The notes under the pieces are model-generated. The model was not told the DNA's origin. It saw only the letters and a list, made by a program, of their open reading frames with translations, and ran no database searches. Both the position numbers and the translations under genes were made by a program. Source: an uncultured Planctomycetaceae bacterium (GTDB lineage Bacteria > Planctomycetota > Planctomycetia > Planctomycetales > Planctomycetaceae). From it: a stretch of 64,000 nucleotides of DNA. The DNA is taken from NCBI GenBank assembly GCA_963813715.1, contig CAWFAK010000007.1, positions 896,001 to 960,000 of the forward strand, given 5' to 3'. Shown here piece after piece: positions 17,119 through 28,580 of the stretch (its first letter is position 1; every line of letters starts with the position of its first letter).

Positions 17119-18228
17119 TCACAGCAGGTTTACGATGCGATCCGTCAGGCCCTTCTCGCCGACAACGACATTCAGCTTGCCGCTGCCGGCGATCTTTTCC
17201 AGAACTTCCAGCTCACGCAGCCGCATGAGCGTCGGGTTGTCCGCCAGCAGCTTGGCCGTGTTGGCCTGGCTGCGGATGGCGGCCGTCTCTTCGCGGCGGG
17301 CGATGAGGTTGGCCTCGGCGGCCTTCTTGGCCTCCGTCACCTTGTTCATCAGGTCCTTCATGTCGCCCGGCAGGATCACATCCCGGATGCCCACCGACGC
17401 GATTTCCAGACCCAACTCGCCCGCCCGACGGCGCACGCTCTCCTCGACGTCCCGCGCCACGGCGTCCTTGTCCGTGAGGAAGTTGTCGAGCTCGCGCGCA
17501 CCGATCACGCTCCGCAGCACCAGCTGCGTCTCGCGATAGAGCGCCTGACGCACGTCGTCCGTCTGGCTGACGGCCTGCCGTGCGTCGACGACCTTGTAGG
17601 TCACCACGGCATTCAGCCGCAGCGTGACCTTGTCGGCCGTCATGATCTCCTGACCGCCGACGTCGACCATCGTCTCGCGCAGGTCGACCTCGACCACGAG
17701 GGCCTCGGCCGGACCCTTCCAGAAGGCGTACTCGCCCGGCGCCAGCGTCTCGACATAGCGGCCGTCGACGAAGAGCACGCCCGCGCAGTCGCGCTTCACC
17801 GTGCACACGTCCAGGTACCGCTGCGCCCTCGCCGAGCGGACGATCGCCTTGAACTGGTCGTGCTCGAAGCGAACGTGCCGCGCGTCGAGCACCTCGACGT
17901 CGACCCGCTTCTGGCCCTTCCAGTACGCGTACTGGCCGCCGGCCAGCACGTGGGCGAAGCGACCCTCGATCCACACGAGAGCCCGCTCGTAGTCCTTGAG
18001 GTCGAGCACCACGGCGCGGTCGCCGAGCGCACCCGACTTCACGATCAGGTCGAGCTTCTCGTGCGAGAGCCACGTCGCCCGCCGCGACACGACGTCGACC
18101 GCCACCTTGCGGAGCGGGTCGATGAACCAGTGCGTACCCTGCTCGAGCACGCGGCGGAACTCGCCGTCGCGGAAGTAGAGACCCATCTCGTAGCTGCGGA
18201 TCTTGTAACGCTTGAAGACGAACATCAT
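17119..18228 (-). CDS. Slipin-family SPFH/band-7 protein with three N-terminal repeats
   Basis: VDLRE..GQEIMTADKVTLRLN, GIRDVILPG, RREETAA.RS.ANTAK..NPTLMRLRELE; AGGAGG SD before ATG. Confidence 0.9.
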   Translation of the reverse strand: MMFVFKRYKIRSYEMGLYFRDGEFRRVLEQGTHWFIDPLRKVAVDVVSRRATWLSHEKLDLIVKSGALGDRAVVLDLKDYERALVWIEGRFAHVLAGGQYAYWKGQKRVDVEVLDARHVRFEHDQFKAIVRSARAQRYLDVCTVKRDCAGVLFVDGRYVETLAPGEYAFWKGPAEALVVEVDLRETMVDVGGQEIMTADKVTLRLNAVVTYKVVDARQAVSQTDDVRQALYRETQLVLRSVIGARELDNFLTDKDAVARDVEESVRRRAGELGLEIASVGIRDVILPGDMKDLMNKVTEAKKAAEANLIARREETAAIRSQANTAKLLADNPTLMRLRELEVLEKIAGSGKLNVVVGEKGLTDRIVNLL

Positions 18229-18239
18229 CCACCTCCTTC

Positions 18240-18715
18240 CCGGAGGATTTCTGAACGAGCTAACCAAGTCAGCTCGCTGAACTTCAGCTGCGAGCGCGCT
18301 CTGCGTAAGGTTCAAGACCACTGACGAAACGAACAGGAGAATAAAGACGCCGTCAGAGGGAAAAACGTTCGCCGATCACACGCAAAAACGCGGAAGGCGT
18401 TTGAGCCGCGGGCTCGCTGGGCGTCGACGCGTCTCGAGAATCGCCTTCGTTCGACGGCGTGCCGTCGAACCCTCAGCGATTCCGTCCCCGCGCCGTTGCC
18501 GAACGAGCGTCACGGCGGAATCCGCGCCCTACAGGGCGTGTTTACGTGTTGCCCAGACACGCCCGGACCCGTTGCCGAAGCACCGCTTTCGCGATCCTCG
18601 GCGGTTTCCGGCACGTGACTGAAGCCGATCGAACGAGCGTTTTCCCTCCTCGGGCGTTGCGGCGCGGTCTTGCGACCGCGTCGTCTCGGTTTCGAGCTCG
18701 GTTAACAGCCGAGTG
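18240..18715 (-). ncRNA. Candidate large structured ncRNA upstream of slipin
   Basis: No credible ORF; at least 8 hairpins incl. GCAA, GAAA and UUCG tetraloops on the minus strand. Confidence 0.65.
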
Positions 18716-18717
18716 CT

Positions 18718-18794
18718 TGGTGCTTGGTGCGGGAGTCGAACCCGCGACAGCCAGACCTTAAATCTGGTGCTCTTCCGACTGAGCTAACCGAAGT
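18718..18794 (-). tRNA. tRNA-like RNA, anticodon TAA, encoded CCA, imperfect acceptor
   Basis: ACTTCGGT-TAGCTCAGTCGGAAGAGC-CCAGA-TTTAAGG-TCTGG...GGGTTCGACTCCC-ACCAAGC-ACCA. Confidence 0.7.
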
Positions 18795-18901
18795 TGGTGA
18801 CGGCCGTTTTAGAACCCATGTCCGGAACACACGAACCTGATCCACGAGACCGCGTGCCAGTCTCGGGAGGCCCTTGCGCCGCTGGACGGGCCGACACCAC
18901 C
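18795..18901 (-). ncRNA. Candidate ~107-nt RNA closed by an acceptor-like stem
   Basis: 5' GGTGGTG pairs with 3' CGTCACC-A; GCCCGTCC/GGACATGGGT and CGAGAC/GTCTCG stems. Confidence 0.45.
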
Positions 18902-18918
18902 GAAGCAAGCCTGAAAAG

Positions 18919-18990
18919 AAACGCCGGTGGGAGTCGAACCCACTACAAGCCGCTTTGCAGGCGGCCGCCCTACCGTCTGGCTCCGGCGTT
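18919..18990 (-). tRNA. tRNA-Cys(GCA)
   Basis: GCCGC-CTGCAAA-GCGGC; TTCGACT loop; U73. Confidence 0.85.
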
Positions 18991-19015
18991 AGATGCGTTT
19001 CAAAGATCTCAAAAA

Positions 19016-19087
19016 TGTCCTCGCCAGGATTCGGACCTGGTCCTCGACCTTCGCAGAGTCGCGTGCGATCCACCACACTCCGAGGAC
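19016..19087 (-). tRNA. tRNA-Arg(GCG), T-loop TCCGAAT
   Basis: CGACT-CTGCGAA-GGTCG; acceptor GTCCTCG/CGAGGAC. Confidence 0.8.
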
Positions 19088-19108
19088 GTTGCGCACTTGT
19101 CGTGCGAG

Positions 19109-19179
19109 TACCCCGCCGAGGATTCGAACCTCGTCTGGCAGCTTCGAACACTGCCGTGCGTCCACCACACTCGCAGGGC
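19109..19179 (-). tRNA. tRNA-Arg(TCG)
   Basis: GCAGT-GTTCGAA-GCTGC; acceptor GCCCTGC/GCGGGGT. Confidence 0.8.
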
Positions 19180-19259
19180 AATTCGTAGAACTCGCATTGA
19201 AGAAAACGAAGCACCCGACGGCTCACGCCGTCGGCTCGCCGGGTCTCCTCGCGCTTTCA

Positions 19260-19331
19260 TGTCTCGACCTGGATTCGAACCAGGACCAGGACCTTCGGAG
19301 GGTCCGATGCGATCCGTTACACCATCGAGAC
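19260..19331 (-). tRNA. tRNA-Arg(CCG)
   Basis: GGACC-CTCCGAA-GGTCC. Confidence 0.9.
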
Positions 19332-19362
19332 GCTGTCGCCAAAATCTTCCAAAAGAACGCAG

Positions 19363-19436
19363 AGCCGACGGCTGGATTCGCACCAGCATCATCCTGTTTA
19401 CAAGACAGGCGCCTTTCTGTTTCGAGCCACGTCGGC
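19363..19436 (-). tRNA. tRNA-Thr(TGT), T-loop TGCGAAT
   Basis: CCTGT-CTTGTAA-ACAGG; acceptor GCCGACG/CGTCGGC. Confidence 0.8.
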
Positions 19437-19455
19437 ACTCAAACGATCGATCAAG

Positions 19456-19525
19456 CACGAACGCGAGGATTTGAACCCCGTCGGGCGGTTTTGGAGGCCG
19501 CCGGCTCTCCCAGGAGCACGCTCGT
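19456..19525 (-). tRNA. tRNA-Trp(CCA)
   Basis: GCGGC-CTCCAAA-ACCGC; TTCAAAT loop. Confidence 0.75.
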
Positions 19526-19550
19526 GTAAAGCCACGACCGGCGCGGACGG

Positions 19551-19634
19551 TTCCGGGAGGGCGAAGCTCCTGCTGAGCCAGCATTCTTCTGCAAGCAAAG
19601 CAGAGGTCGGCGGGAGCCTCGCCCTCCAGGAACA
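19551..19634. repeat. Inverted REP-like pair
   Basis: GGAGGGCGAAGCTCCTGCTGAGCC ... GTCGGCGGGAGCCTCGCCCTCC. Confidence 0.7.
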
Positions 19635-19635
19635 A

Positions 19636-20232
19636 TCAACTCTCCAGCGGGACGTTCCAATACGCCTCGCTGATGAACTTCGACCAGCTCATCATCCGCT
19701 CGCTCGTCCGTGCGTAGAGCGGCTTCCAGGCCGGTCGCACCGGCTCCCGATGCAGCTTCATCCGTGCCTGCGCCGGCGTGCGGTCGGCCTTGTGCTTGTT
19801 GCAGTCGATGCACGCCAGCACGCAGTTCTCCCACGTCGAGACGCCCCCTTGCGAACGCGGCACAACGTGGTCGATCGTCAGCTCGGCTCCGCCCGGCTGA
19901 CGGCCGCAGTACTGGCACGTCCAATGATCGCGCTTGTGGATGTTCCGCCGGCTGAAGGCGACCGCGGCCGTCGGCAGCCGGTTGTACTCCGCCAGCACGA
20001 TCACCTCCGGCACGCGCAGCGTCGACCGCACGCACTGGATGAAGTCGTCACCGTCGGCCGGCCGCAGCCGCGACCAGTCGGCCCACGTGTAGAGCCGAAA
20101 ATCGCGCGGATCGACGACGCGGGCCGCCTCGTTCCACAACAGCACCAGCGCCCGGGCGACCGTCGCCACGTTCACGGGCTGCCAGTTGCGATTGAGGACC
20201 AGCGCCGGCCGCTGGAGCGTTCGCGTCGTCAT
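19636..20232 (-). CDS. HNH endonuclease
   Basis: LVLNRNWQP, FSRRNI..RD..CQYCG..LTIDHVVPRSQGG.STWEN.VLAC..CN..K. Confidence 0.95.
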   Translation of the reverse strand: MTTRTLQRPALVLNRNWQPVNVATVARALVLLWNEAARVVDPRDFRLYTWADWSRLRPADGDDFIQCVRSTLRVPEVIVLAEYNRLPTAAVAFSRRNIHKRDHWTCQYCGRQPGGAELTIDHVVPRSQGGVSTWENCVLACIDCNKHKADRTPAQARMKLHREPVRPAWKPLYARTSERMMSWSKFISEAYWNVPLES

Positions 20233-20256
20233 GATTTTGTTCCTCCGCGAAAACAG

Positions 20257-20330
20257 GGTGCCCAGGGGGAGTTGAACCCACCCCTTCGACGTTCACAGCG
20301 TCGCGTGCAAACCGTTACACCACGGGCACC
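20257..20330 (-). tRNA. tRNA-His(GTG)
   Basis: CGACG-CTGTGAA-CGTCG; G-1:C73. Confidence 0.9.
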
Positions 20331-20419
20331 ATCCAATGGACCGTCCAAGGGACGGCTGGTGCCTCCGGCAGGGAAGTGCCCGCTGTCCTTCTGTCACACT
20401 TGTTGTTTGATAGGCAATT

Positions 20420-20491
20420 TGCCTCGACCAGGATTTGAACCCAGAACTCCTTGTTAGAAGCAAGGAATGATTTCCGTTTCACCATCGAGGC
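20420..20491 (-). tRNA. tRNA-Arg(TCT)
   Basis: CCTTG-CTTCTAA-CAAGG. Confidence 0.9.
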
Positions 20492-20507
20492 CCGTGGCTC
20501 GATCGAG

Positions 20508-20594
20508 CGGAAGGCAAGGGAATTGAACCCTCATCCGCACTCGGCGGAACCGCCTTAGCAGAGCGGCCCGGCCAACCGTATCCGGCTACCTTCC
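20508..20594 (-). tRNA. tRNA-Ser(GCT)
   Basis: CCGCT-CTGCTAA-GGCGG; long variable arm; G73. Confidence 0.85.
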
Positions 20595-20663
20595 GTATTT
20601 TTGTCCTTCTTGTTTCTGTACTGCCTTATTTCTGTACCTGCGGGCACCGTCCGAGGCTTCGAA

Positions 20664-20734
20664 TGGACCGCCGGGGAATCGAACCCCGATTTCCTGGTTG
20701 CAAGCCAGGCGTCTTCCCGTTTGACGAGCAGCCC
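20664..20734 (-). tRNA. tRNA-Ala(TGC)
   Basis: CCTGG-CTTGCAA-CCAGG; G3:U70. Confidence 0.9.
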
Positions 20735-20741
20735 GGGTTGG

Positions 20742-20851
20742 AGAGTCCAAAGTCCAAGGTCCAACGTCCAAAGTCGGAAAGACAAAAAGACCGCGGCCGC
20801 CGTCGTCTCTTGTTTTCTGACCTTGCTTTGGACTTTGGACTTCTGGACCTT
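20742..20851. repeat. Heptamer tandem repeats (AAAGTCC-like), direct block plus inverted block
   Basis: agagtcc aaagtcc aaggtcc aacgtcc ... tttggac tttggac ttctggac. Confidence 0.8.
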
Positions 20852-20866
20852 CGCCATTAGGCGAAT

Positions 20867-20942
20867 TGACCGAGGTGGGAGTCGAACCCACAAAGTCACG
20901 GCGCTCTCGACACCGCCGCTTTGCCGGTTTGCGTACTCGGCC
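20867..20942 (-). tRNA. tRNA-Leu(GAG), short variable arm, C33
   Basis: CGGTG-TCGAGAG-CGCCG; Leu-type D loop; A73. Confidence 0.75.
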
Positions 20943-20972
20943 GTTTTTGCACTATCTCCTTCGTTCGATCAG

Positions 20973-21041
20973 TAGCAGGTCCGGGTGTCGCACCCGGCCG
21001 GTGGAGCTTATGAGGCCCCACTGGGCACTGGCCCCCCTGCG
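20973..21041 (-). tRNA. tRNA-Met(CAT)-like, C1 mismatch, reduced D arm
   Basis: GGGGC-CTCATAA-GCTCC; T arm CCGGG-TGCGACA-CCCGG. Confidence 0.65.
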
Positions 21042-21089
21042 TCATCGCGTCAAATAACGCTGCGTGATTCGACGATTCGTTGTTTGAAG

Positions 21090-21172
21090 TGACCAAGGGG
21101 AGAGTCGAACTCCCACGCCCGCGGGGCACGACATTCTGAGTGTCGCGTGTCTGCCAGTTCCACCACTTGGTC
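21090..21172 (-). tRNA. tRNA-Leu(CAG)
   Basis: CGACA-CTCAGAA-TGTCG; long variable arm. Confidence 0.9.
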
Positions 21173-21237
21173 GTTGTCGCATGTTCTCGGCGAGCGTGGT
21201 CGGTTCGTCGATTCGGTTCTGATTGCCTCGATGAAAG

Positions 21238-21310
21238 CGACCCGTGCGGGAGTCGAACCCGCCTTTGCGGCTTGAGGGGCCGCCGTCCTATGCCAATAGA
21301 CGAACGGGCC
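21238..21310 (-). tRNA. tRNA-Glu(CTC), C33
   Basis: GCGGC-CCCTCAA-GCCGC. Confidence 0.85.
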
Positions 21311-21340
21311 GAATTGTTCGTCGCATTTCCAATTGACGAG

Positions 21341-21422
21341 TGCGTCGGGCAGGAGTCGAACCTGCAATGCCATCAGGCGGGTGGTTTACAGTCACTGGGG
21401 CACGCCAATGCCCAGCCGACGC
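21341..21422 (-). tRNA. tRNA-Tyr(GTA)
   Basis: AGTGA-CTGTAAA-CCACC (imperfect stem); variable arm. Confidence 0.8.
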
Positions 21423-21440
21423 GTATTTGTTCTCTCGAAG

Positions 21441-21515
21441 TGGCACGAGTGGGAGTCGAACCCACAGACCACGAAGGTTTGAGCTTCGCCGCTTTGCCAG
21501 TTTGCGTACCGTGCC
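21441..21515 (-). tRNA. tRNA-Leu(CAA), short variable arm
   Basis: CGAAG-CTCAAAC-CTTCG. Confidence 0.8.
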
Positions 21516-21534
21516 CTCTCGCGATTTCTCGAAG

Positions 21535-21609
21535 CGTCTCCGATGGGATTCGAACCCACGATCTCCACCGTGACAGGGTGGCGGGGACGGCCAACTCCCC
21601 TACGAAGAC
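21535..21609 (-). tRNA. tRNA-Asp(GTC)
   Basis: CCACC-CTGTCAC-GGTGG; G73. Confidence 0.9.
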
Positions 21610-21687
21610 CGGCGTTGCCGGCTTGTGCCTCCGGCAGGCAGACGAAGGACCGCAGGGTTATGCTTGCGGTTCGCCTCAATTCTTCAG

Positions 21688-21759
21688 TAATCCCGGATGG
21701 ACTCGAACCATCGTTGCCTGGGTGTAGGCCAGGAGTCGTTGCCGCTGGACCACGGGATC
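21688..21759 (-). tRNA. tRNA-Val(TAC), C33
   Basis: CCTGG-CCTACAC-CCAGG. Confidence 0.85.
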
Positions 21760-21833
21760 TTTTTGTTCTGAACGCGTTGTGCGAATTGGACGGCTCCCGA
21801 TGGTCGCCTTTCTTCGTGTAGTGCGATTAGCAG

Positions 21834-21919
21834 CGGAAGCCGTGGGACTCGAACCCACAATTCGCGCACGGCGAACACCTGTTTTCGGGACAGGCCCCTC
21901 ATCCGGCCGGATGACTTCC
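21834..21919 (-). tRNA. tRNA-Ser(CGA), C33
   Basis: CCTGT-CCCGAAA-ACAGG; long variable arm. Confidence 0.8.
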
Positions 21920-21945
21920 GTGAGATACGAACTTAGCTTTTCCAG

Positions 21946-22021
21946 TTGCGGGGGCTGGAATCGAACCAGCGGCCTCCAGGTTCAGAGCCTGGCGTCACGT
22001 ACCAGCAGCAACTGCCCCGCA
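21946..22021 (-). tRNA. tRNA-Gln(CTG)
   Basis: CCAGG-CTCTGAA-CCTGG; U1:A72. Confidence 0.85.
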
Positions 22022-22066
22022 GCGTGTTTTGCCCTCTTATTAACGAGCGTCCGTCGGTGAAAACTG

Positions 22067-22137
22067 TTCGGGGAGAAGGATTCGAACCTTCATCACCTGC
22101 TTCAAAGGCAGGCAGCCTACCGTTAGCCGATCCCCGA
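22067..22137 (-). tRNA. tRNA-Gln(TTG)
   Basis: CCTGC-CTTTGAA-GCAGG; U1:A72. Confidence 0.85.
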
Positions 22138-22166
22138 GCACGCGCGCTTTCAAATTCCATCCACAA

Positions 22167-22238
22167 AGTGCCCTGCGGGAGTTGAACCCGCCTCGCCGGC
22201 TTGGAAGGCCGGCACCTTTGCCGCTCGGCCAAGGGCAC
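22167..22238 (-). tRNA. tRNA-Gly(TCC)
   Basis: CCGGC-CTTCCAA-GCCGG; U73. Confidence 0.85.
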
Positions 22239-22258
22239 AGTCGTTTCAATTTCTCAGG

Positions 22259-22345
22259 CGGAAGCCGTGGGACTCGAACCCACAAGCGAGTGGTTGCTCG
22301 CCTCCTGTTTTCAAGACAGGACCCTCATCCGGCCGGATGGCTTCC
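22259..22345 (-). tRNA. tRNA-Ser(TGA)
   Basis: CCTGT-CTTGAAA-ACAGG; long variable arm. Confidence 0.85.
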
Positions 22346-22372
22346 GTGAGACAACAAATTTTCGACAGACAG

Positions 22373-22447
22373 CTGCGGCGGCAGGAATCGAACCTGCGTC
22401 GGGATGATTAACAGTCACCTGCCCGTACCAACACGGGCCCCACCGCA
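22373..22447 (-). tRNA. tRNA-Asn(GTT)
   Basis: GGTGA-CTGTTAA-TCATC; U1:A72, G73. Confidence 0.85.
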
Positions 22448-22509
22448 ATGCGACTTCTTCTTCCTCCGGAGAACCGGCGGGCTAACACCCGCGCGCTCGC
22501 CTGCGAAAG

Positions 22510-22580
22510 AGCACCCAGCGGGAGTCGAACCCGCACTTCCGCCCTGGCAAGGCAGCAGGCTGCCGCTACATCATGGGTGC
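22510..22580 (-). tRNA. tRNA-Gly(GCC)
   Basis: CTGCC-TTGCCAG-GGCGG; U73. Confidence 0.85.
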
Positions 22581-22712
22581 GTTTTTTTGTCCTGGTCGAG
22601 TTGTCAAAGAACCATGCACACGGAACGGTCGTCCGCGCAAATTCAAACGCGACGGCCGAAGGGCCGTGCCGAATAACCACGGCGGCCAAAGGGGCCGCGA
22701 AAACTAACGCAG

Positions 22713-22784
22713 AGCACAGGGTGGGACTCGAACCCACGTTTCCGCATTACGGGTGCGGAGTCCTCGCCGCTGAACGACCCGTGC
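22713..22784 (-). tRNA. tRNA-Thr(CGT), C33
   Basis: CCGCA-CCCGTAA-TGCGG. Confidence 0.85.
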
Positions 22785-22831
22785 TTGCCGTTGTCGAACT
22801 GTCGCCGTCAAACTCGTCGTCATCTCATCAG

Positions 22832-22904
22832 TGGGACCAGAGGGACTTGAACCCTCACCGACCTGGTTAAGAGCCAGGCATGCTGCCGCTAACACCTTGA
22901 TCCC
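22832..22904 (-). tRNA. tRNA-Lys(CTT)
   Basis: CCTGG-CTCTTAA-CCAGG. Confidence 0.9.
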
Positions 22905-22920
22905 GTGTGCGTTTCCGAAG

Positions 22921-22992
22921 TGGGGCCGGAGGGATTTGAACCCACGCCTCGCAGATTAAAAGTCTGCTGTGCTACCGTTACACCACGACCCC
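22921..22992 (-). tRNA. tRNA-Lys(TTT)
   Basis: GCAGA-CTTTTAA-TCTGC. Confidence 0.9.
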
Positions 22993-23066
22993 GCGTGTGG
23001 CCGTGGCTCTGTTTCTTCCGGTACCGTCGGGTCACTTTTTTATCTCCGAAAAAAAGCCCAAAAGAG

Positions 23067-23137
23067 TCGCTCGGGGTGGAGTCGAACCACCGTTTTCGCC
23101 TTATCAGAGCGACGTACTTCCGTTGCACTACCGAGCG
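23067..23137 (-). tRNA. tRNA-Ile(GAT)
   Basis: TCGCT-CTGATAA-GGCGA. Confidence 0.85.
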
Positions 23138-23159
23138 TGCTGCTCCTGCATTTCTTCAG

Positions 23160-23231
23160 TCGGGATGGCTGGAATCGAACCAGCTTCCACGTGTTCCCGA
23201 AACACGCGGGCGCCCGGAGCCCTTCATCCCG
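23160..23231 (-). tRNA. tRNA-Pro(CGG)
   Basis: CGTGT-TTCGGGA-ACACG; C1:G72, A73. Confidence 0.85.
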
Positions 23232-23251
23232 TTCTTGTTTGTCTTCTCGAA

Positions 23252-23323
23252 TGACTCGTGCGGGATTTGAACCCGCGTCGCCGCCTTGAAAGGGCAGAAT
23301 CCTCACCGTTAGACGAACGAGCC
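23252..23323 (-). tRNA. tRNA-Glu(TTC)
   Basis: CTGCC-CTTTCAA-GGCGG. Confidence 0.9.
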
Positions 23324-23359
23324 TTTTCTTCGTGCATCAGCGCGCAAGCTGAGCGCAAG

Positions 23360-23431
23360 TGGGTCGGGAGGCGCTCGAATCCTCGTCCCCTGGTTTTCAG
23401 CCAGGCGCTAAACCGTCTCAGCTACCGACCC
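23360..23431 (-). tRNA. tRNA-Phe(GAA), first gene of the array
   Basis: CCTGG-CTGAAAA-CCAGG; T stem has an A/G mismatch. Confidence 0.85.
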
Positions 23432-23491
23432 ATGGTCCGGCCGTGTCGTTCCGCACGTGTTGCCCGGCACGACGAAACAAAAGAGCCAAAC

Positions 23492-23523
23492 AAAAAAAGC
23501 CCGATGTCTTTGTGACACCGGGC
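23492..23523 (-). terminator. Intrinsic terminator/attenuator in the tRNA-array leader
   Basis: GCCCGGTGTC-ACAAA-GACATCGGGC followed by TTTTTTT. Confidence 0.85.
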
Positions 23524-23560
23524 CGACGAGAGTCTTGCTCTCCACAGGGTTGGGCCAGCG

Positions 23561-23680
23561 TCACAAGTGCCGCGGATATGAAAACGGATTCCCACCGGGC
23601 AACGTCTTGGCAATTTGACGTCCCTGCTGGGCGGAATAACCCGCGGATATTTGCATCGAGCTGGGCCAGAGGCATGCCAT
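23561..23680 (-). CDS. Putative leader peptide, 39 aa: MACLWPSSMQISAGYSAQQGRQIAKTLPGGNPFSYPRHL
   Basis: Hand translation; stop codon lies inside the antiterminator strand; in-frame GTG at 23698 is an alternative start. Confidence 0.6.
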   Translation of the reverse strand: MACLWPSSMQISAGYSAQQGRQIAKTLPGGNPFSYPRHL

Positions 23681-23749
23681 GGAACGAGTGCTTTCCACTG
23701 CGTCGTTGATGTCGCGAATCGCAAAAACGTTTGCGACTCGTCTGCTCGC

Positions 23750-23777
23750 TTAGACGCGGCCGGAACACGGAAGGTTC
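23750..23777 (-). promoter_or_regulatory. ECF sigma-like promoter
   Basis: GAACCT-N16-GTCTAA, matching the RpoE-type GAAC..-N16/17-GTC/TC pattern. Confidence 0.6.
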
Positions 23778-23875
23778 ACGGCGATTTCGAGAATTTTTTT
23801 ATTCGCCGGACCGAAGGGGGGGCTGCGTTGCCTTTCTCGCTCGTCGGGCGGACGAGGAGGATTGCGCGCGAAGCT

Positions 23876-26234
23876 TTAGTTCAGCCCCTTCTGCGCCTCG
23901 GCGTTCGAGGGGTCGATCGTCAGAACTTTCCGAAAGCAGTCCTTGGCCTGTTCGTCGCGGTCGAGTGATTTCAGCACCTGGCCGCGCAAGGTCAGCAGGT
24001 TGACCTGGTTCTTGAGCACATTCTCTCGCGTGGCCGGCATTCCCTTGGGGACCGCTTTTTGCCATTGGTCCGGGTGCTCGAGCAGGCGGGTCAGCATGGC
24101 GATGCCGACGCCCAGCTCGCGCTGTTCCTGCTCGCGTGCGTCGGGTGCGATTTCCACGTTGTTGATCTTGATGCCGTCGAGCCGATCCAGCACCTGGCTC
24201 AGAATCGCGTGCGAGCCGACGTCGTCGGGCGCGAGCCGCAGCCGCTGTAGCGTGAAGAAGTACGCCGCCACCGGATCGAGCGCGGCCAGCTTGATGCCTC
24301 CCTGCAGGTCGGCCGGCGTGTAGGGACGGGAGAAGCGATCGGCCAGGCCGACCTCCGCCTGGTTCACCTTGGAGATGCGTCGCCAGGCGACCTGGCGGGC
24401 GGCGTGCAGCTCCGCGCAGCCTGGATCGACCATCAGTCCCCGCTCGATCACGCGGTCGGCCAGTTGCTGATCGTAGAACACGGCTTCGACGTGCGCCCAA
24501 AGATAATAGACGCGCGGATCCATTGGCTCGAGCTTGAGCGCGAGATCCTCCACGGCCGCCACGCGCGGCGCGTCGTTGGTGCGAGTGAGCTGGTCCATGC
24601 GATCGGCAGCGGCCAGTTCGGCGGCCGTCGGCTGGCGGGTGTAGGTCGTCGTGGTGACTTCGACTTTTCCCCCGCCGATATTGCGCCGCGAGCTCGCCGA
24701 CCAGGTTTTCGGCAATCGCATGCGCTCGGCGCTCAGCAGGTTCTCGCTGCCGCGAACTCGGTTGTACTCCGCATAAATCATCAGTTGCAGCGGATCGGTC
24801 GGGTTGAGCGAATCCCCCTGCCCCAGCGCCGGGCCGTTCCCTCCGATCAGCCAGTTGAGCCGCGTGAGTTGCCGCTCGAACTCCAGGTCATTCTGCCCCA
24901 GTGCGCGGATCGCCTTGAGGGTGTCGCTCGCCCGCCGCAGATGCTTGGAAAAGACGTGCGTGTGCGGCGGGTCCTCCATTTTGTAGAGCCATTCGCCCGT
25001 CCGCAGGTTGAGCACCACGTGCGTCTGGTTGCGAGTGCCGAGCGCTTCCTTGGTGGTTTCGAACTGGCGATCGAACCAGAACTCACTCTTTCGGCCGTTG
25101 CCGATCTCGGTGACGACGGGGCTGGCGAGCGCCGTCTTTTTCTCGCGTTCGATCTCATCAACGAGCCGCTTGAAGAGGGCCACTTGCGGGCCGAGATCCT
25201 TCGGATCCTCTTTGACGGCCTGCTCGAGCGCCGCCAGCCCGCGGGTCGCGTCGTCGCGACGGACCGCTTCGACGCGCGTCCACCAGTCGGCCATCTTGTC
25301 GAGGGCCGTACGGATCTCGTCGTCGCTGCGGCCGTCGCGAACGAGGGCCCGCAAGCCGCGGCAAATGCTCTCCGACTTCTGCGCGACGGCCAGCTTGTCG
25401 AAGGTGCCGATCTGCTCGGCGGGCGAATCAAGCGGTATTTCTCCTTCGGGAAAGACAAACTCGCCGATGGGCGACGGCGGGATCAGTTTGTGGCGCGTGT
25501 AAATCTGCACACCGACAGCCGGCTCCCGCTTGGAGAGGGGCGCGCCGGTCGCCGCGTCGAGATATAAAAAAGTGCCGTAGGCCCGGTCGACGACGACGTC
25601 GCGATCGCGGACGGCCAGCATTCGCCAGACGACCTTGCCCTTGGGGGCGTGGGCCTCGGTGTCCGCCAGCTTGACGGGCAGGTGTCGCAGGACGCCGTAC
25701 AACGGATAGGACGTCGGCTCTTCGTTCGAGTTCACTGCGACGGGCGGCTCCGCACCGGGCCGCAGCAGCTGGACGTAAATTTGATCTTCGCGGACGGTGG
25801 GGGCCAGGTCCCACAGTCCGCGGACGGCTTCTTCAGGCGACAAGACACCGTCGGGCAGTGCTGCGGGTCTGGAGGAGGCGTCGAGCGCGTAGGGACTGTT
25901 GAACATCTTGCGGCCCTCGACTCGCACTTCGAGAGCCATCCCTTCGGCCTTCGGCGCGAAATACAAGAACCGTGCACCAACCGGTTCAAAGCGCGAGCGC
26001 GTGTAAGCGCCCCACAAATCGACGCGGAACAGCTTTGCGCCGGCATTCCAATTGACGGCAGCAGCGTTCGCCTGATTGCGAACCGCAGCAAACTCCTGCA
26101 GGCTGGCGGTGGGCTCGCCAGCGGACGGCGGCGACGGCGGCGATTGCTAACCTTGCAGTCGCAACCGCAAAGCCCAATGACAGCCAGGCGACGCGCAGGA
26201 AACGACGCGCCGCGAACCCGTGGCCCGTGTTCAT
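23876..26234 (-). CDS. Secreted TPR-containing hypothetical protein (frameshift near 5' end)
   Basis: C-terminal TPR (AKDCFRKVLTIDPSNAEA); signal-like N-terminus in another frame. Confidence 0.7.
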
Positions 26235-26281
26235 GACCGATCCTCGGCGATTTTTCTGTGGCCCCGGTCCGGGCCGACTCC

Positions 26282-26851
26282 CTATTTCAGCCCGAGCTTC
26301 CGGCCCGCTTCCAGCAGGCCGATCATTTCGCGCAGACGCTTTTGTTTCGTCTCGTCCCGCTTGGCCGAATCGACCCAGGCGATGTAATTCCGCTTGCACG
26401 AGGGAGCGAGCTTTTCAAAATGCTGCCGCGCCCGCGGATTCGCCTGTATCTCTTTGTCCATATAAGACGGGAGCGCTGTGATCGATGGCCGCGGTGCATC
26501 GCCGCTGCGCGCCGTCGGCGGCCGGTCGAGACCGGGCTGGGCGAGCCGCCCCTGTGCTTTCAATTCCGCGTATCGCCGGCGATTGATGGTCGACCAGCGG
26601 CTATCGAGCTTGCGCGGCGTGAACTTTCGCGCGTAGCGATCGTCGTCGAGTCGCCGCACCAGGCTGTCGATCCAGCCGAAGCACAGGGCCTCGTCGATGG
26701 CATCGCCCAGCTCGATCGATTTCTCGCCCGTGTGCTGTTTGTAGAACACGAGCCACACCTCGGGCTCCGCGGCGTGATTTTTTTCGAGCCACTTCCGCCA
26801 CAGCCGGCGGGAGCGCACATCCAGCGTTTTCAGACTCTTGGCCGACATCAT
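26282..26851 (-). CDS. YdeI/OmpD-associated family protein
   Basis: WRKWLEKNH, EALCFGWIDS, FTPRK..SRWS..N, AKRDETKQKR. Confidence 0.9.
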   Translation of the reverse strand: MMSAKSLKTLDVRSRRLWRKWLEKNHAAEPEVWLVFYKQHTGEKSIELGDAIDEALCFGWIDSLVRRLDDDRYARKFTPRKLDSRWSTINRRRYAELKAQGRLAQPGLDRPPTARSGDAPRPSITALPSYMDKEIQANPRARQHFEKLAPSCKRNYIAWVDSAKRDETKQKRLREMIGLLEAGRKLGLK

Positions 26852-26894
26852 TAGACTCAACCTGACACTTGACTCCTGACCGCCCACCCGAGTT

Positions 26895-28580
26895 TCAGGC
26901 GGTGCGGCGTTCCAGGATCTCGCGCACCTCTTTGGTCGGATCGTCTTCAACGTGGCACGGCGTGTCGAAAATCATTGTCGCGCGTTTGTCCGCGGTGTAA
27001 GCCGGCCAGTTTGGCAAGCCGGCGTGGTTCGGATTTCCGTTGCGGGCCATCGCCGCCCAGGCCCCGGCCGTCGCGGCTTCGAGTTCGTGCATCGACGGGT
27101 TGATCGGGCCAACCATGCTCTCGCACAGATCGATGTGGTCGAACGCGAACGGAATTTCCATCGTGTGCGGAGCGTGCAGACTCATCACCGGCGTCTCCCA
27201 CGCAAACACGTAGAGGTACGTCGGTCCTTTGCCAAGCGCCTCGCGGCGTTCCGCCAGGCGGATCGAACTCATCGCCTGGATATCCGTCCCGATGAACGTG
27301 GACAAATCATAAGGGCTCGCCTTGGGGTATTTGCGGCGATAGCTGGCGATCACGTCCGGGGCGGCATCGCCCAGCCCGCGCTTGGCGCTTTTCAAGAGAC
27401 CCGCGTCGTCGAGCTTGCCGAACGTCGGCGAGTCGATGTCGTAAACCGTCCGTTCGGTGCGCGTGTAGCCGACGATGACCGGGATCTCCTCGGAGATGGC
27501 GGGCGCGACCGGATCGAACGGCTGCGTCGGCAGAGCCTTGCCGTCGACGACAGGCCGGGTCCCCAAACCGGGTCGCCCGCTCGCTGGATCCAGGCGGACC
27601 GCGGATGCATCCCCGGCGGCAATCAGCTGCTCGACCGGAATCTTTTGCAGATCGCGAGCCTGCGCGGAAGTCAGCCCGAGCTTTTTCAACACCTTCTGGG
27701 TGAATTCGTTGGCAGTTTCGGGAGTGCCCACGCGTAGGGCCGCGCCGCTTTCAATTGCCGCACGATGAAAAAGCCCCTTGGCGGCGGGCATCGCCAGCAA
27801 AGTCGAGACTTTGGCGCCGCCTCCCGACTGGCCGAAGATCATCACGTTGTTCGGATCGCCGCCGAACTGACTGATGTTGTCGCGGACCCATTGCAAAGCG
27901 GCTACCAGATCGAGCTGGCCGGCATTCCCCGAACCCGCGAACTCCGGCCCGGCAACATCATCGAGATACAGGTATCCGAGGACGTTGAGCCGGTGGTTCA
28001 CGCTCACGACTACCACATCCTGATGTCGCGCCAGACCGCCCCCTTCGTAGCCCAGAGCGCTTCCGCTCCCCTGCTCAAAGCCGCCTCCGTGCATCCAGAC
28101 CATGACGGGCCGCTTGACGCCGTCGTTGAGCCCTTTGCTCCACACGTCGAGGCACAGGCAATCTTCGCTAGGGCCCACCTTCGAGGCAGGACGCAAGACG
28201 CCGAAGAATTCGAGCTGTTTCGCCCCGCGCGGCCGGCGCGATTGCGGTGCGAAATGCCCGTACTCGAAAGCGTCCCGCACGCCCGTCCAGGGCTCTTCTT
28301 GCAGCGGCGGCAGAAATCGCCGCGCGCCGCCGGTCGGCGCGCCATACGGAATCCCCTTGAAGACGTGCACGCCCTGCACGGTCTTGCCCCGCACTTTGCC
28401 CGACCGCGTCGAGACGGGCGGCGTAACATCTGCGGAGCCTTCCTCCGCGTAACTGCGCCAGAGCGCGCCGGGAACCAACGCACCCAGCGTTGCGGCTCCG
28501 GCGAATTTCCCCGCGGTCGCCAGGAACAGCCGACGATCCATTTCCGACCAACGCTCGTTTCGCACCTGTTTTGCGGACAT
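26895..28580 (-). CDS. Carboxylesterase type B, Tat signal
   Basis: FKGIPYG, SEDCL, HGGGF, FGQSGGG. Confidence 0.95.

Follow-up and report, generated by a model that had tools for sequence, protein, structure and literature searches.

A candidate ribosome-dependent attenuator at the head of a supernumerary tRNA gene array in Planctomycetaceae

What decides when a bacterium transcribes a spare set of tRNA genes? To our knowledge, the regulation of bacterial tRNA gene arrays is largely unknown, the L-array of Anabaena being the only one studied, and we know of almost no characterised cis-regulatory RNAs in Planctomycetota. Here we report the analysis of a 64,000-nt stretch of DNA from an uncultured Planctomycetaceae bacterium (assembly GCA_963813715.1, contig CAWFAK010000007.1, positions 896,001 to 960,000; hereafter the window, numbered from its first letter), in which an array of 32 tRNA genes is preceded by a short leader with an open reading frame (ORF) and an intrinsic terminator. 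The pairings predicted in this leader, and their conservation in related genomes, suggest that it is probably a ribosome-dependent attenuator of the array, which is supernumerary in the source genome (G000).

The leader, its terminator and the array all lie on the minus strand. The array (18718-23431; 4.7 kb; predicted with ARAGORN) runs from Phe(gaa) to Leu(taa), with tRNA-Phe at 23431-23359 and tRNA-Leu at 18793-18718. ARAGORN found 87 tRNA genes in G000, of which 32 belong to the array and 55 are dispersed outside it, so that the array is supernumerary. A gap of 444 nt between tRNA-Phe and the upstream gene, which ends at 23876, houses the leader ORF (23561-23680) and the terminator. The ORF consists of 39 sense codons and a TGA stop (ATG 23680-23678, stop 23563-23561) and ends with CAC TTG TGA; a GTG-extended form begins at 23698. 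The terminator is a hairpin of 11 pairs (7 G-C) with a loop of 5 nt (23524-23498), followed by seven T (23498-23492); at 23524-23492 it was the top terminator-like site of the 8.5 kb that were scanned (18000-26500), and 60 nt separate the end of its U-tract from tRNA-Phe.

Four segments of the leader can pair in mutually exclusive ways. Segment 1 (23651-23667, codons 5-10) is the anti-antiterminator strand and the partner of segment 2. Segment 2, TTGTGACGCTGGCC (23553-23566), has 14 nt and contains the last sense codon and the TGA (its positions 4-6). Segment 3 (23510-23524) takes in the 5' arm of the terminator together with its loop and is at the same time the 3' strand of the antiterminator, and segment 4 (23492-23508) is made up of the terminator's 3' arm (23508-23499) and its U-tract (23498-23492). 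Within segments 2 and 3, the stop-spanning TTGTGACGCTGG (23566-23555) pairs with CCGGTGTCACAA (23521-23510) over 12 contiguous base pairs, two of them G.U, with a duplex energy of -22.6 kcal/mol (RNAduplex). An earlier note on this DNA had described the 39-codon ORF with its CAC TTG TGA end, the U7 terminator and the 12-bp pairing across the stop, all of which were recovered here; segment 1, a hairpin in the middle of the ORF, a promoter-like element and the supernumerary status of the array go beyond it.

On these predicted pairings the leader is probably a four-segment, trp-like attenuator, which would decide whether polymerase passes from a promoter resembling those of extracytoplasmic function (ECF) sigma factors into the 32 tRNA genes. 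With no ribosome on the leader, segments 1 and 2 would pair (helix 1:2), the terminator helix (3:4) would then form and transcription would terminate. A fast ribosome would reach the TGA and cover segment 2, again with formation of 3:4 and termination, and the array would be off in healthy translation. If the ribosome is slowed or halted within the first third of the ORF, it would instead cover segment 1 and leave segment 2 free to pair with segment 3 (helix 2:3), and the polymerase would read through. The result would be a feedback by which faltering translation increases the supply of tRNA. The earlier note had proposed that a ribosome at the stop masks the antiterminator and shuts the array off, and comparison with relatives backs the core of this reading (frame, TGA, helices 2:3 and 3:4, synteny). 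It had also expected read-through from either stalling or failed translation; the first part is retained in the model, but the 14 nt that enter the antiterminator are also the partner of segment 1, so that absent translation is predicted to give helix 1:2 and the terminator, and thus termination rather than read-through.

The link between leader and tRNA genes extends far beyond G000. The unit of 310 nt from about 23798 to 23487 recurs with 67-88% identity in six further genus members; it lies directly before Phe-Glu-Pro-Ile-Lys... tRNA genes in all seven genomes, with only about 30 nt from U-tract to tRNA-Phe in the six relatives, and no second copy of it was found elsewhere in G000. A covariance model (R1) was built from the last ~100 nt of the leader with the terminator as its sole structure, so that the antiterminator was not favoured. 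At E <= 0.01, a threshold that also lets in hairpin-only matches, 95 of the 151 family genomes searched had an R1 match; a best E <= 1e-5 was reached in about 55 family genomes, often with several copies each. Forward tRNA genes follow in 28 of the 30 best R1 loci (2-15 within 1.5 kb), the other two being cut by contig ends. The first tRNA gene is at most 60 nt away (1-60) in 21 of the 28, so close that there is no room for a separate promoter, and 18 of the 28 loci have Phe(gaa) in this first place.

A pattern derived from the terminator was also searched in 185,579 species genomes (one per GTDB species) and returned at least 120 stretches and 80 titled loci. Among the matches listed, 65 of the 80 loci were R1 hits, and 60 of these 65 had a tRNA gene within 450 nt; in four of the five R1 loci without one, the sequence ends early. 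The titles of the R1 hits among the matches listed were mostly Planctomycetaceae, together with Pirellulales, Thermoguttaceae, Isosphaeraceae, Schlesneria, Fuerstiella and Thalassoglobus; going by their titles, two of the leaders come from the cultured carriers Thalassoglobus neptunius KOR42 (L079) and Schlesneria sp. T3-172 (L105). Of the 15 listed loci that were not R1 hits, 14 had no tRNA gene within 450 nt, and 12 of these 14 (Erwinia, Streptomyces, Pelomonas and others) also lacked the leader motif and provided an internal control. Two loci that were not run through R1, L115 and L118, are leader-like by eye and have no tRNA gene within 450 nt; a further copy of a known genus leader (L100), likewise not submitted to R1, has tRNA genes. 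In a phylum-wide sample searched at E <= 1e-5, R1 matched four of six genomes of Planctomycetaceae but had no match in the 144 genomes that belong to other families; built from a single family and run with strict filters, the model has limited sensitivity outside it, and this negative does not show absence. A tRNA model run on five complete family genomes gave 69 and 70 matches in the two with strong leader matches, 43 in the one with a weak leader match, and 41 and 46 in the two without leader matches.

The pairings are kept along with the unit. In an alignment of 10 sequences, helix 3:4 is 95.5% paired and helix 2:3 is 97.4% paired, with the column pair 39/81 occurring as AU (5), GC (3) and GU (2). 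Helix 2:3 is still 93.9% paired in 95 distinct sequences, versus 24-47% with the partner slid, and the TGA lies invariably within segment 2. The RNAalifold consensus of the seven genus sequences contains helix 1:2 (14 pairs) alongside the terminator; 13 of the pairs are standard in all seven genomes, one pair is changed on both sides, and at the fourteenth G000 has a gap. In G000, the helix (23667-23651 with 23566-23553) is also present in the minimum free energy (MFE) and centroid folds. Among leaders with 32-33 codons, helix 1:2 is 80% paired, and half of its pairs (5 of 10) show changes in both strands. The N-terminal 'L-R/W-S-S...' (codons 4-10) of the leader peptide corresponds to segment 1 and its complementarity to segment 2, and the mid-ORF 'FADQ(S/P)AN' to a hairpin UUCGCCGn...nCGGCGAA. 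Together, helix 1:2 and this hairpin are 82.6% paired in 16 sequences of the 32-33-codon class, versus 27-41% when slid, and eight pairs are changed on both sides, a number matched by none of 500 shuffles.

The position and specificity of segment 1 were also seen across the wider set. Each of 68 distinct segment-2 variants was paired with its own upstream region and with those of others; the own partners paired more stably than the swapped ones (-15.96 versus -14.56 kcal/mol), and none of 5000 permutations reached the observed value, in a kind of test that is inflated by relatedness. In 48 of 89 leaders (null 18%), the best partner of segment 2 lies 0-24 nt downstream of an ATG in the same frame, and most of these 48 partners begin 7-13 nt after the ATG, whatever the length of the ORF (32-69 codons); in the genus of G000, this search chose other upstream sites. 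When codons 11-20 of the G000 leader were masked as a mimic of a ribosome, the RNA folded into the antiterminator, and when the stop region was masked, it folded into the terminator.

The reading frame and its stop codon are conserved as well. None of the seven genus genomes interrupts the ORF, which measures 111, 120, 126, 126, 126, 129 and 129 nt in them, so that every insertion or deletion is a multiple of three. Of 89 distinct leaders, 88 are free of further stops over at least 30 codons in the TGA frame, compared with 54 and 43 for the other two frames, and the lengths fall into classes of 32-33, 38-39, 53-57 and 62-69 codons. No full-length row (88-89 of the 95 distinct sequences) departs from the TGA, and the next base is always C. 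Upstream of it, the 89 leaders have Pro at -4 in 49 (CCC/CCG/CCA/CCT), Leu at -3 in 77 (CTG/TTG/CTC/CTT) and Arg at -2 in 83 (CGC/AGG/CGA/CGT/CGG), and the last residue before the TGA is variable. With this Pro-Leu-Arg-x-UGA-C end, termination may include a programmed pause; that its stop context and C-terminus prolong the stay of the ribosome at the stop is speculation. A short form of the leader with a 16-codon ORF, MECISQTNSHPY(R/P)LR(Q/M), occurs in six loci (L017, L026, L052, L062, L065 and L077), about 200-240 nt 5' of arrays that open with tRNA-Pro(cgg) and tRNA-Pro(tgg); here, Leu CTC and Arg AGG replace CTG and CGC.

What would such a leader sense? Its peptide, MACLWPSSMQISAGYSAQQGRQIAKTLPGGNPFSYPRHL, uses 17 different amino acids in 39 codons (D, E and V are missing), and codons ending in A or T are somewhat enriched, both as the earlier note had observed: the G + C content at third codon positions (GC3) is 0.63, versus 0.79 +/- 0.10 in 5000 gene windows (7.5% as low), and the codon adaptation index is 0.46, versus 0.69 +/- 0.11 in gene windows (4% as low). 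The rarest codon of G000, ATA (0.6 per 1000 codons), is codon 11 of the ORF, and a ribosome waiting there would occupy segment 1; this ATA is not kept within the genus. Tandem control codons are lacking in G000 and its relatives, with runs neither of a codon nor of a residue, so that the cue is probably general slow decoding, which might stem from a shortage of charged tRNA, tRNA damage or ribosome inhibitors. Like the earlier note, we tentatively suggest that the leader senses general translation capacity.

Upstream of the leader, a promoter-like element of the ECF sigma type (23752-23779) consists of GTGAAC (23779-23774), a 17-nt spacer and CGTCT (23756-23752), from which a transcription start near 23745 can be inferred. 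The seven genus genomes share a block of an A-rich stretch, GTGAAC, a spacer of fixed length and CGCGTCTAAGC. The motif [GC][TCG]GAAC-N16-[GC][CGA][GA]TC[TAG] was found in 38 of 46 leaders and in none of 46 shuffled controls, 57-85 nt 5' of the ATG and with a spacer that is constant across the family. ECF promoters carry AAC in the -35 and CGT or CGTC in the -10 element (PMC5758882), and the putative leader promoter looks to be of this type; a scan for sigma-70 promoters found no site within 18000-26500. The motif has 20 matches in the whole G000 genome, which is near chance, so that no regulon can be defined from it. Taken together with the leader ORF, the element raises the possibility that the spare arrays of Planctomycetaceae are under two-key control, by a stress (ECF-type) promoter and by a sensor of ribosome speed, a proposal that we put forward with reserve. 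A second ECF-like motif (GCGAAC, N16, GGCGTCT; ~18345-18372, minus strand) lies about 350 nt past the last tRNA gene of the array and about 110 nt before an ORF of 339 residues (18232-17213) that matches no Pfam family; it may belong to the same regulon.

RNA contigs from nature provided a further view of the leader. Leader DNA was present in six soil or rhizosphere metatranscriptomes, four of which were compared. One contig of 262 nt (X18) matches 23487-23727 except for one difference, and the Illumina adapter letters that follow show that the sequenced fragments ended there; another of 240 nt, from a different study (X16), covers 23494-23724 and has a 6-nt insertion typical of a sister species. 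Both contain only the leader, and we take their cover (23487-23727, minus strand) as the terminated leader transcript: they start inside a predicted 5' stem-loop (23714-23740), which is present in the MFE and centroid folds and differs in sequence among genus members, and they stop at the U-tract. The stretch 23728-23980 had no contig cover in the four runs. In contigs with tRNA-Phe of relatives, the upstream overhang is the terminator hairpin and its T-run joined directly to the tRNA, as a read-through precursor would look; no contig of the G000 type bridging terminator and tRNA-Phe was found in the four runs, and contigs cannot show absence.

How firmly, then, does the attenuator reading stand? 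Sequence comparison could demonstrate which parts the leader has and in what order, that their pairings exclude one another, that the frame is kept and that the unit goes with tRNA arrays, and from these results we infer both the translation of the ORF and the regulation of the array, a step that weighs against the reading, as do the following points. On the G000 sequence taken by itself, helix 2:3 is only moderately unusual, since dinucleotide shuffling of the upstream 154 nt gave as low an energy in 33 of 2000 cases, and the duplex energy of helix 1:2 is unremarkable (reached by 1806 of 2000 shuffles). Covariation in helix 2:3 is thin, with a single pair changing on both sides, and the 65 loci obtained from the pattern were chosen for an exact segment 3, so that variation there is suppressed. 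Masking of the start region still gave the terminator, so that a simple equilibrium picture fails to reproduce every state. The purine runs resembling a Shine-Dalgarno sequence lie 12-18 nt from the ATG, which is rather distant. Selection on the residues of the ORF body is weak, with median nonsynonymous (pN) and synonymous (pS) differences of 0.47 and 0.65 and a ratio of about 0.7 (231 pairs of the 32-33-codon class), and much of the apparent conservation of the peptide is, by its position in predicted helices, RNA structure. The contigs reveal neither strand nor level, DNA carry-over is possible in RNA libraries, and an accumulating leader-only RNA is equally expected from a stand-alone small RNA gene. 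The fold of the 259-nt leader (-97.1 kcal/mol, z = -2.67) was equalled by 3 of 200 shuffles; the case from G000 alone is modest, and it is the conservation in relatives that makes it strong. The conservation seen in the ORF body was not accepted as evidence that the peptide itself is functional, given the pN/pS of about 0.7 and the coincidence of 'FADQ(S/P)AN' and 'LRSS' with RNA helices.

Such a stand-alone gene, for a small RNA, a small protein or both, with the array transcribed through unregulated leakage or from a promoter that escaped notice, is an unlikely alternative. It would explain why the leader-only contigs stop at the terminator, and the ORF is indeed predicted as a gene in places: relatives of a 62-residue leader peptide in the databases are annotated only as 'hypothetical protein', with the ORF predicted in 28 entries. 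The leader peptide matched no Pfam family, and six leader peptides matched no NCBIfam family. There is also precedent in Sinorhizobium, where RNAs and peptides derived from attenuators are reported to act in trans (PMC7298713, 10.1101/606483). However, the first tRNA gene, 1-60 nt past the unit in 21 of 28 loci, is too near for a promoter of its own, and the unit is tied to tRNA arrays in 28 of the 30 best loci and in 60 of 65 loci among the matches listed. The stop codon always lies in the strand that pairs with segment 1 or with the terminator arm, which a simple gene does not need, and selection at the peptide level is weak. An attenuator that works without the ribosome, such as a riboswitch or a leader that binds a protein or a tRNA in the manner of a T-box, with the open frame being incidental, appears very improbable. 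The conserved helices, including the mid-ORF hairpin with its covariation, would suit it, and sensing of tRNA would fit a leader that precedes tRNA genes. Against it, the frame is kept across variants of 32-69 codons, and an invariant stop inside segment 2 has no explanation without a ribosome. Known RNA families offer no candidate either: at the gathering score, Rfam matched only families of the tRNA clan in the window (tRNA, and tRNA-Sec for one array gene), and at E <= 10 it matched within 23400-23900 only two models of Burkholderia small RNAs (16 and 13 bits, with cut-offs of 46 and 49.5), chance hits that align on the terminator.

The remaining alternative keeps the ribosome but places the signal at the end of the ORF: a nascent peptide or release factor would be sensed when Pro-Leu-Arg-x and UGA-C arrest or delay release upon a particular cue, be it a small molecule, an antibiotic or the activity of release factor 2, and the dwell of the ribosome on segment 2, not its general decoding speed, would set termination. 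Pro, Leu and Arg are kept by way of synonymous codons and the TGA-C is invariant, as this would require; in E. coli, a stop codon in the context UGA-C terminates poorly, and stalling at stop codons occurs with TnaC and SpeFL. The conservation is, however, partly a matter of RNA pairing, with the CGC and the G before the TGA taking part in helices 1:2 and 2:3, the last residue is variable, and no known arrest motif was matched. We give this alternative little weight, about as much as the stand-alone gene, and retain the attenuator governed by ribosome speed early in the ORF.

The leader-peptide attenuators of enterobacterial amino-acid operons (trpL, hisL, pheL, leuL, thrL and the ilv leaders) are the closest likeness. 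They share with the leader a short ORF, the three helices 1:2, 2:3 and 3:4, an intrinsic terminator, a stop codon whose position lets the ribosome cover segment 2 as it terminates, and the predicted outcomes of termination upon fast or absent translation and read-through upon an early stall. Unlike them, the leader described here has no tandem codons for a single amino acid, is longer (32-69 codons), has a promoter that looks ECF-type, precedes tRNA genes instead of biosynthetic enzymes and belongs to Planctomycetota. The attenuation of macrolide-inducible mef/mel (PMC4335068) is similar in that slowing of the ribosome on a leader ORF turns a terminator off, but attenuators of that type control resistance genes, whereas the output here would be tRNA supply. 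A T-box is likewise a terminator/antiterminator leader linked to tRNA status; it differs in binding uncharged tRNA without a ribosome and in controlling aminoacyl-tRNA synthetase and amino-acid genes.

With regard to tRNA arrays themselves, L-arrays have been described as long, supernumerary and horizontally spread, with Planctomycetes among the phyla listed, and the L-array of Anabaena sp. PCC 7120 (the trn operon) as normally silent and induced when translation is impaired (PMC8421152). The G000 array is similarly long, dense and additional to a dispersed tRNA set. For the Anabaena array, control has been attributed to direct repeats over the -10 box and the start site and to a putative repressor (PMC8421152), whereas the control element here is a leader ORF with a terminator switch; the strings 'leader', 'terminator' and 'attenuat' do not occur in the text of PMC8421152. 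A survey of tRNA arrays does not, in its accessible parts, treat regulation (PMC4758250), and our literature search, which covered no supplements, found no report of a leader ORF or attenuator before tRNA genes.

If the attenuator reading is true, the sensor is built into the transcript and gives direct feedback from decoding speed to tRNA supply, and attenuation of the trp type extends from amino-acid metabolism to the translation apparatus. If, moreover, slow decoding in general switches the array on, which is a less secure proposal, the leader might represent a general, so far undescribed homeostatic principle, by which the translating ribosome sets the transcription of tRNA genes. The leader is in any case a family-wide, alignable RNA element in Planctomycetota, and the four-segment reading makes mutational predictions that are distinct from those of the simpler two-state model in the earlier note.

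Several other features of the locus deserve mention. Between segments 2 and 3, the folds contain a small hairpin, GAGAG-CAAGA-CUCUC (23528-23542, minus strand), which is present in G000 and G002 only, the spacer being variable in other genomes. Within the array, a 730-nt gap between tRNA-Trp and tRNA-His is occupied by an ORF for an HNH endonuclease of 198 residues (19636-20232, minus strand; PF01844, E 3.7e-15), which hints at a mobile origin of the array. Three tRNA-Leu genes predicted by ARAGORN (taa, gag and caa; 18718-18793, 20867-20942 and 21440-21515, minus strand) are only 76 nt long, so that they are without the long variable arm expected of bacterial tRNA-Leu, and 8 of the 35 ARAGORN tRNAs in the window have no Rfam match at the gathering score. 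Outside the window, at C8:182792-182863 of G000, ARAGORN predicts a tRNA whose anticodon, tta, would decode UAA, a stop codon. The gene upstream of the leader (end 23876) encodes a protein of 713 residues with one C-terminal TPR match. In three genus relatives (L004, L006 and L007), the leader directly follows a YdeI/OmdA-family gene, whose counterpart in the window lies at 26282-26950; in G000 and G002, the TPR-tailed gene sits between the two and, judging from this gene order, was inserted or lost within the genus.

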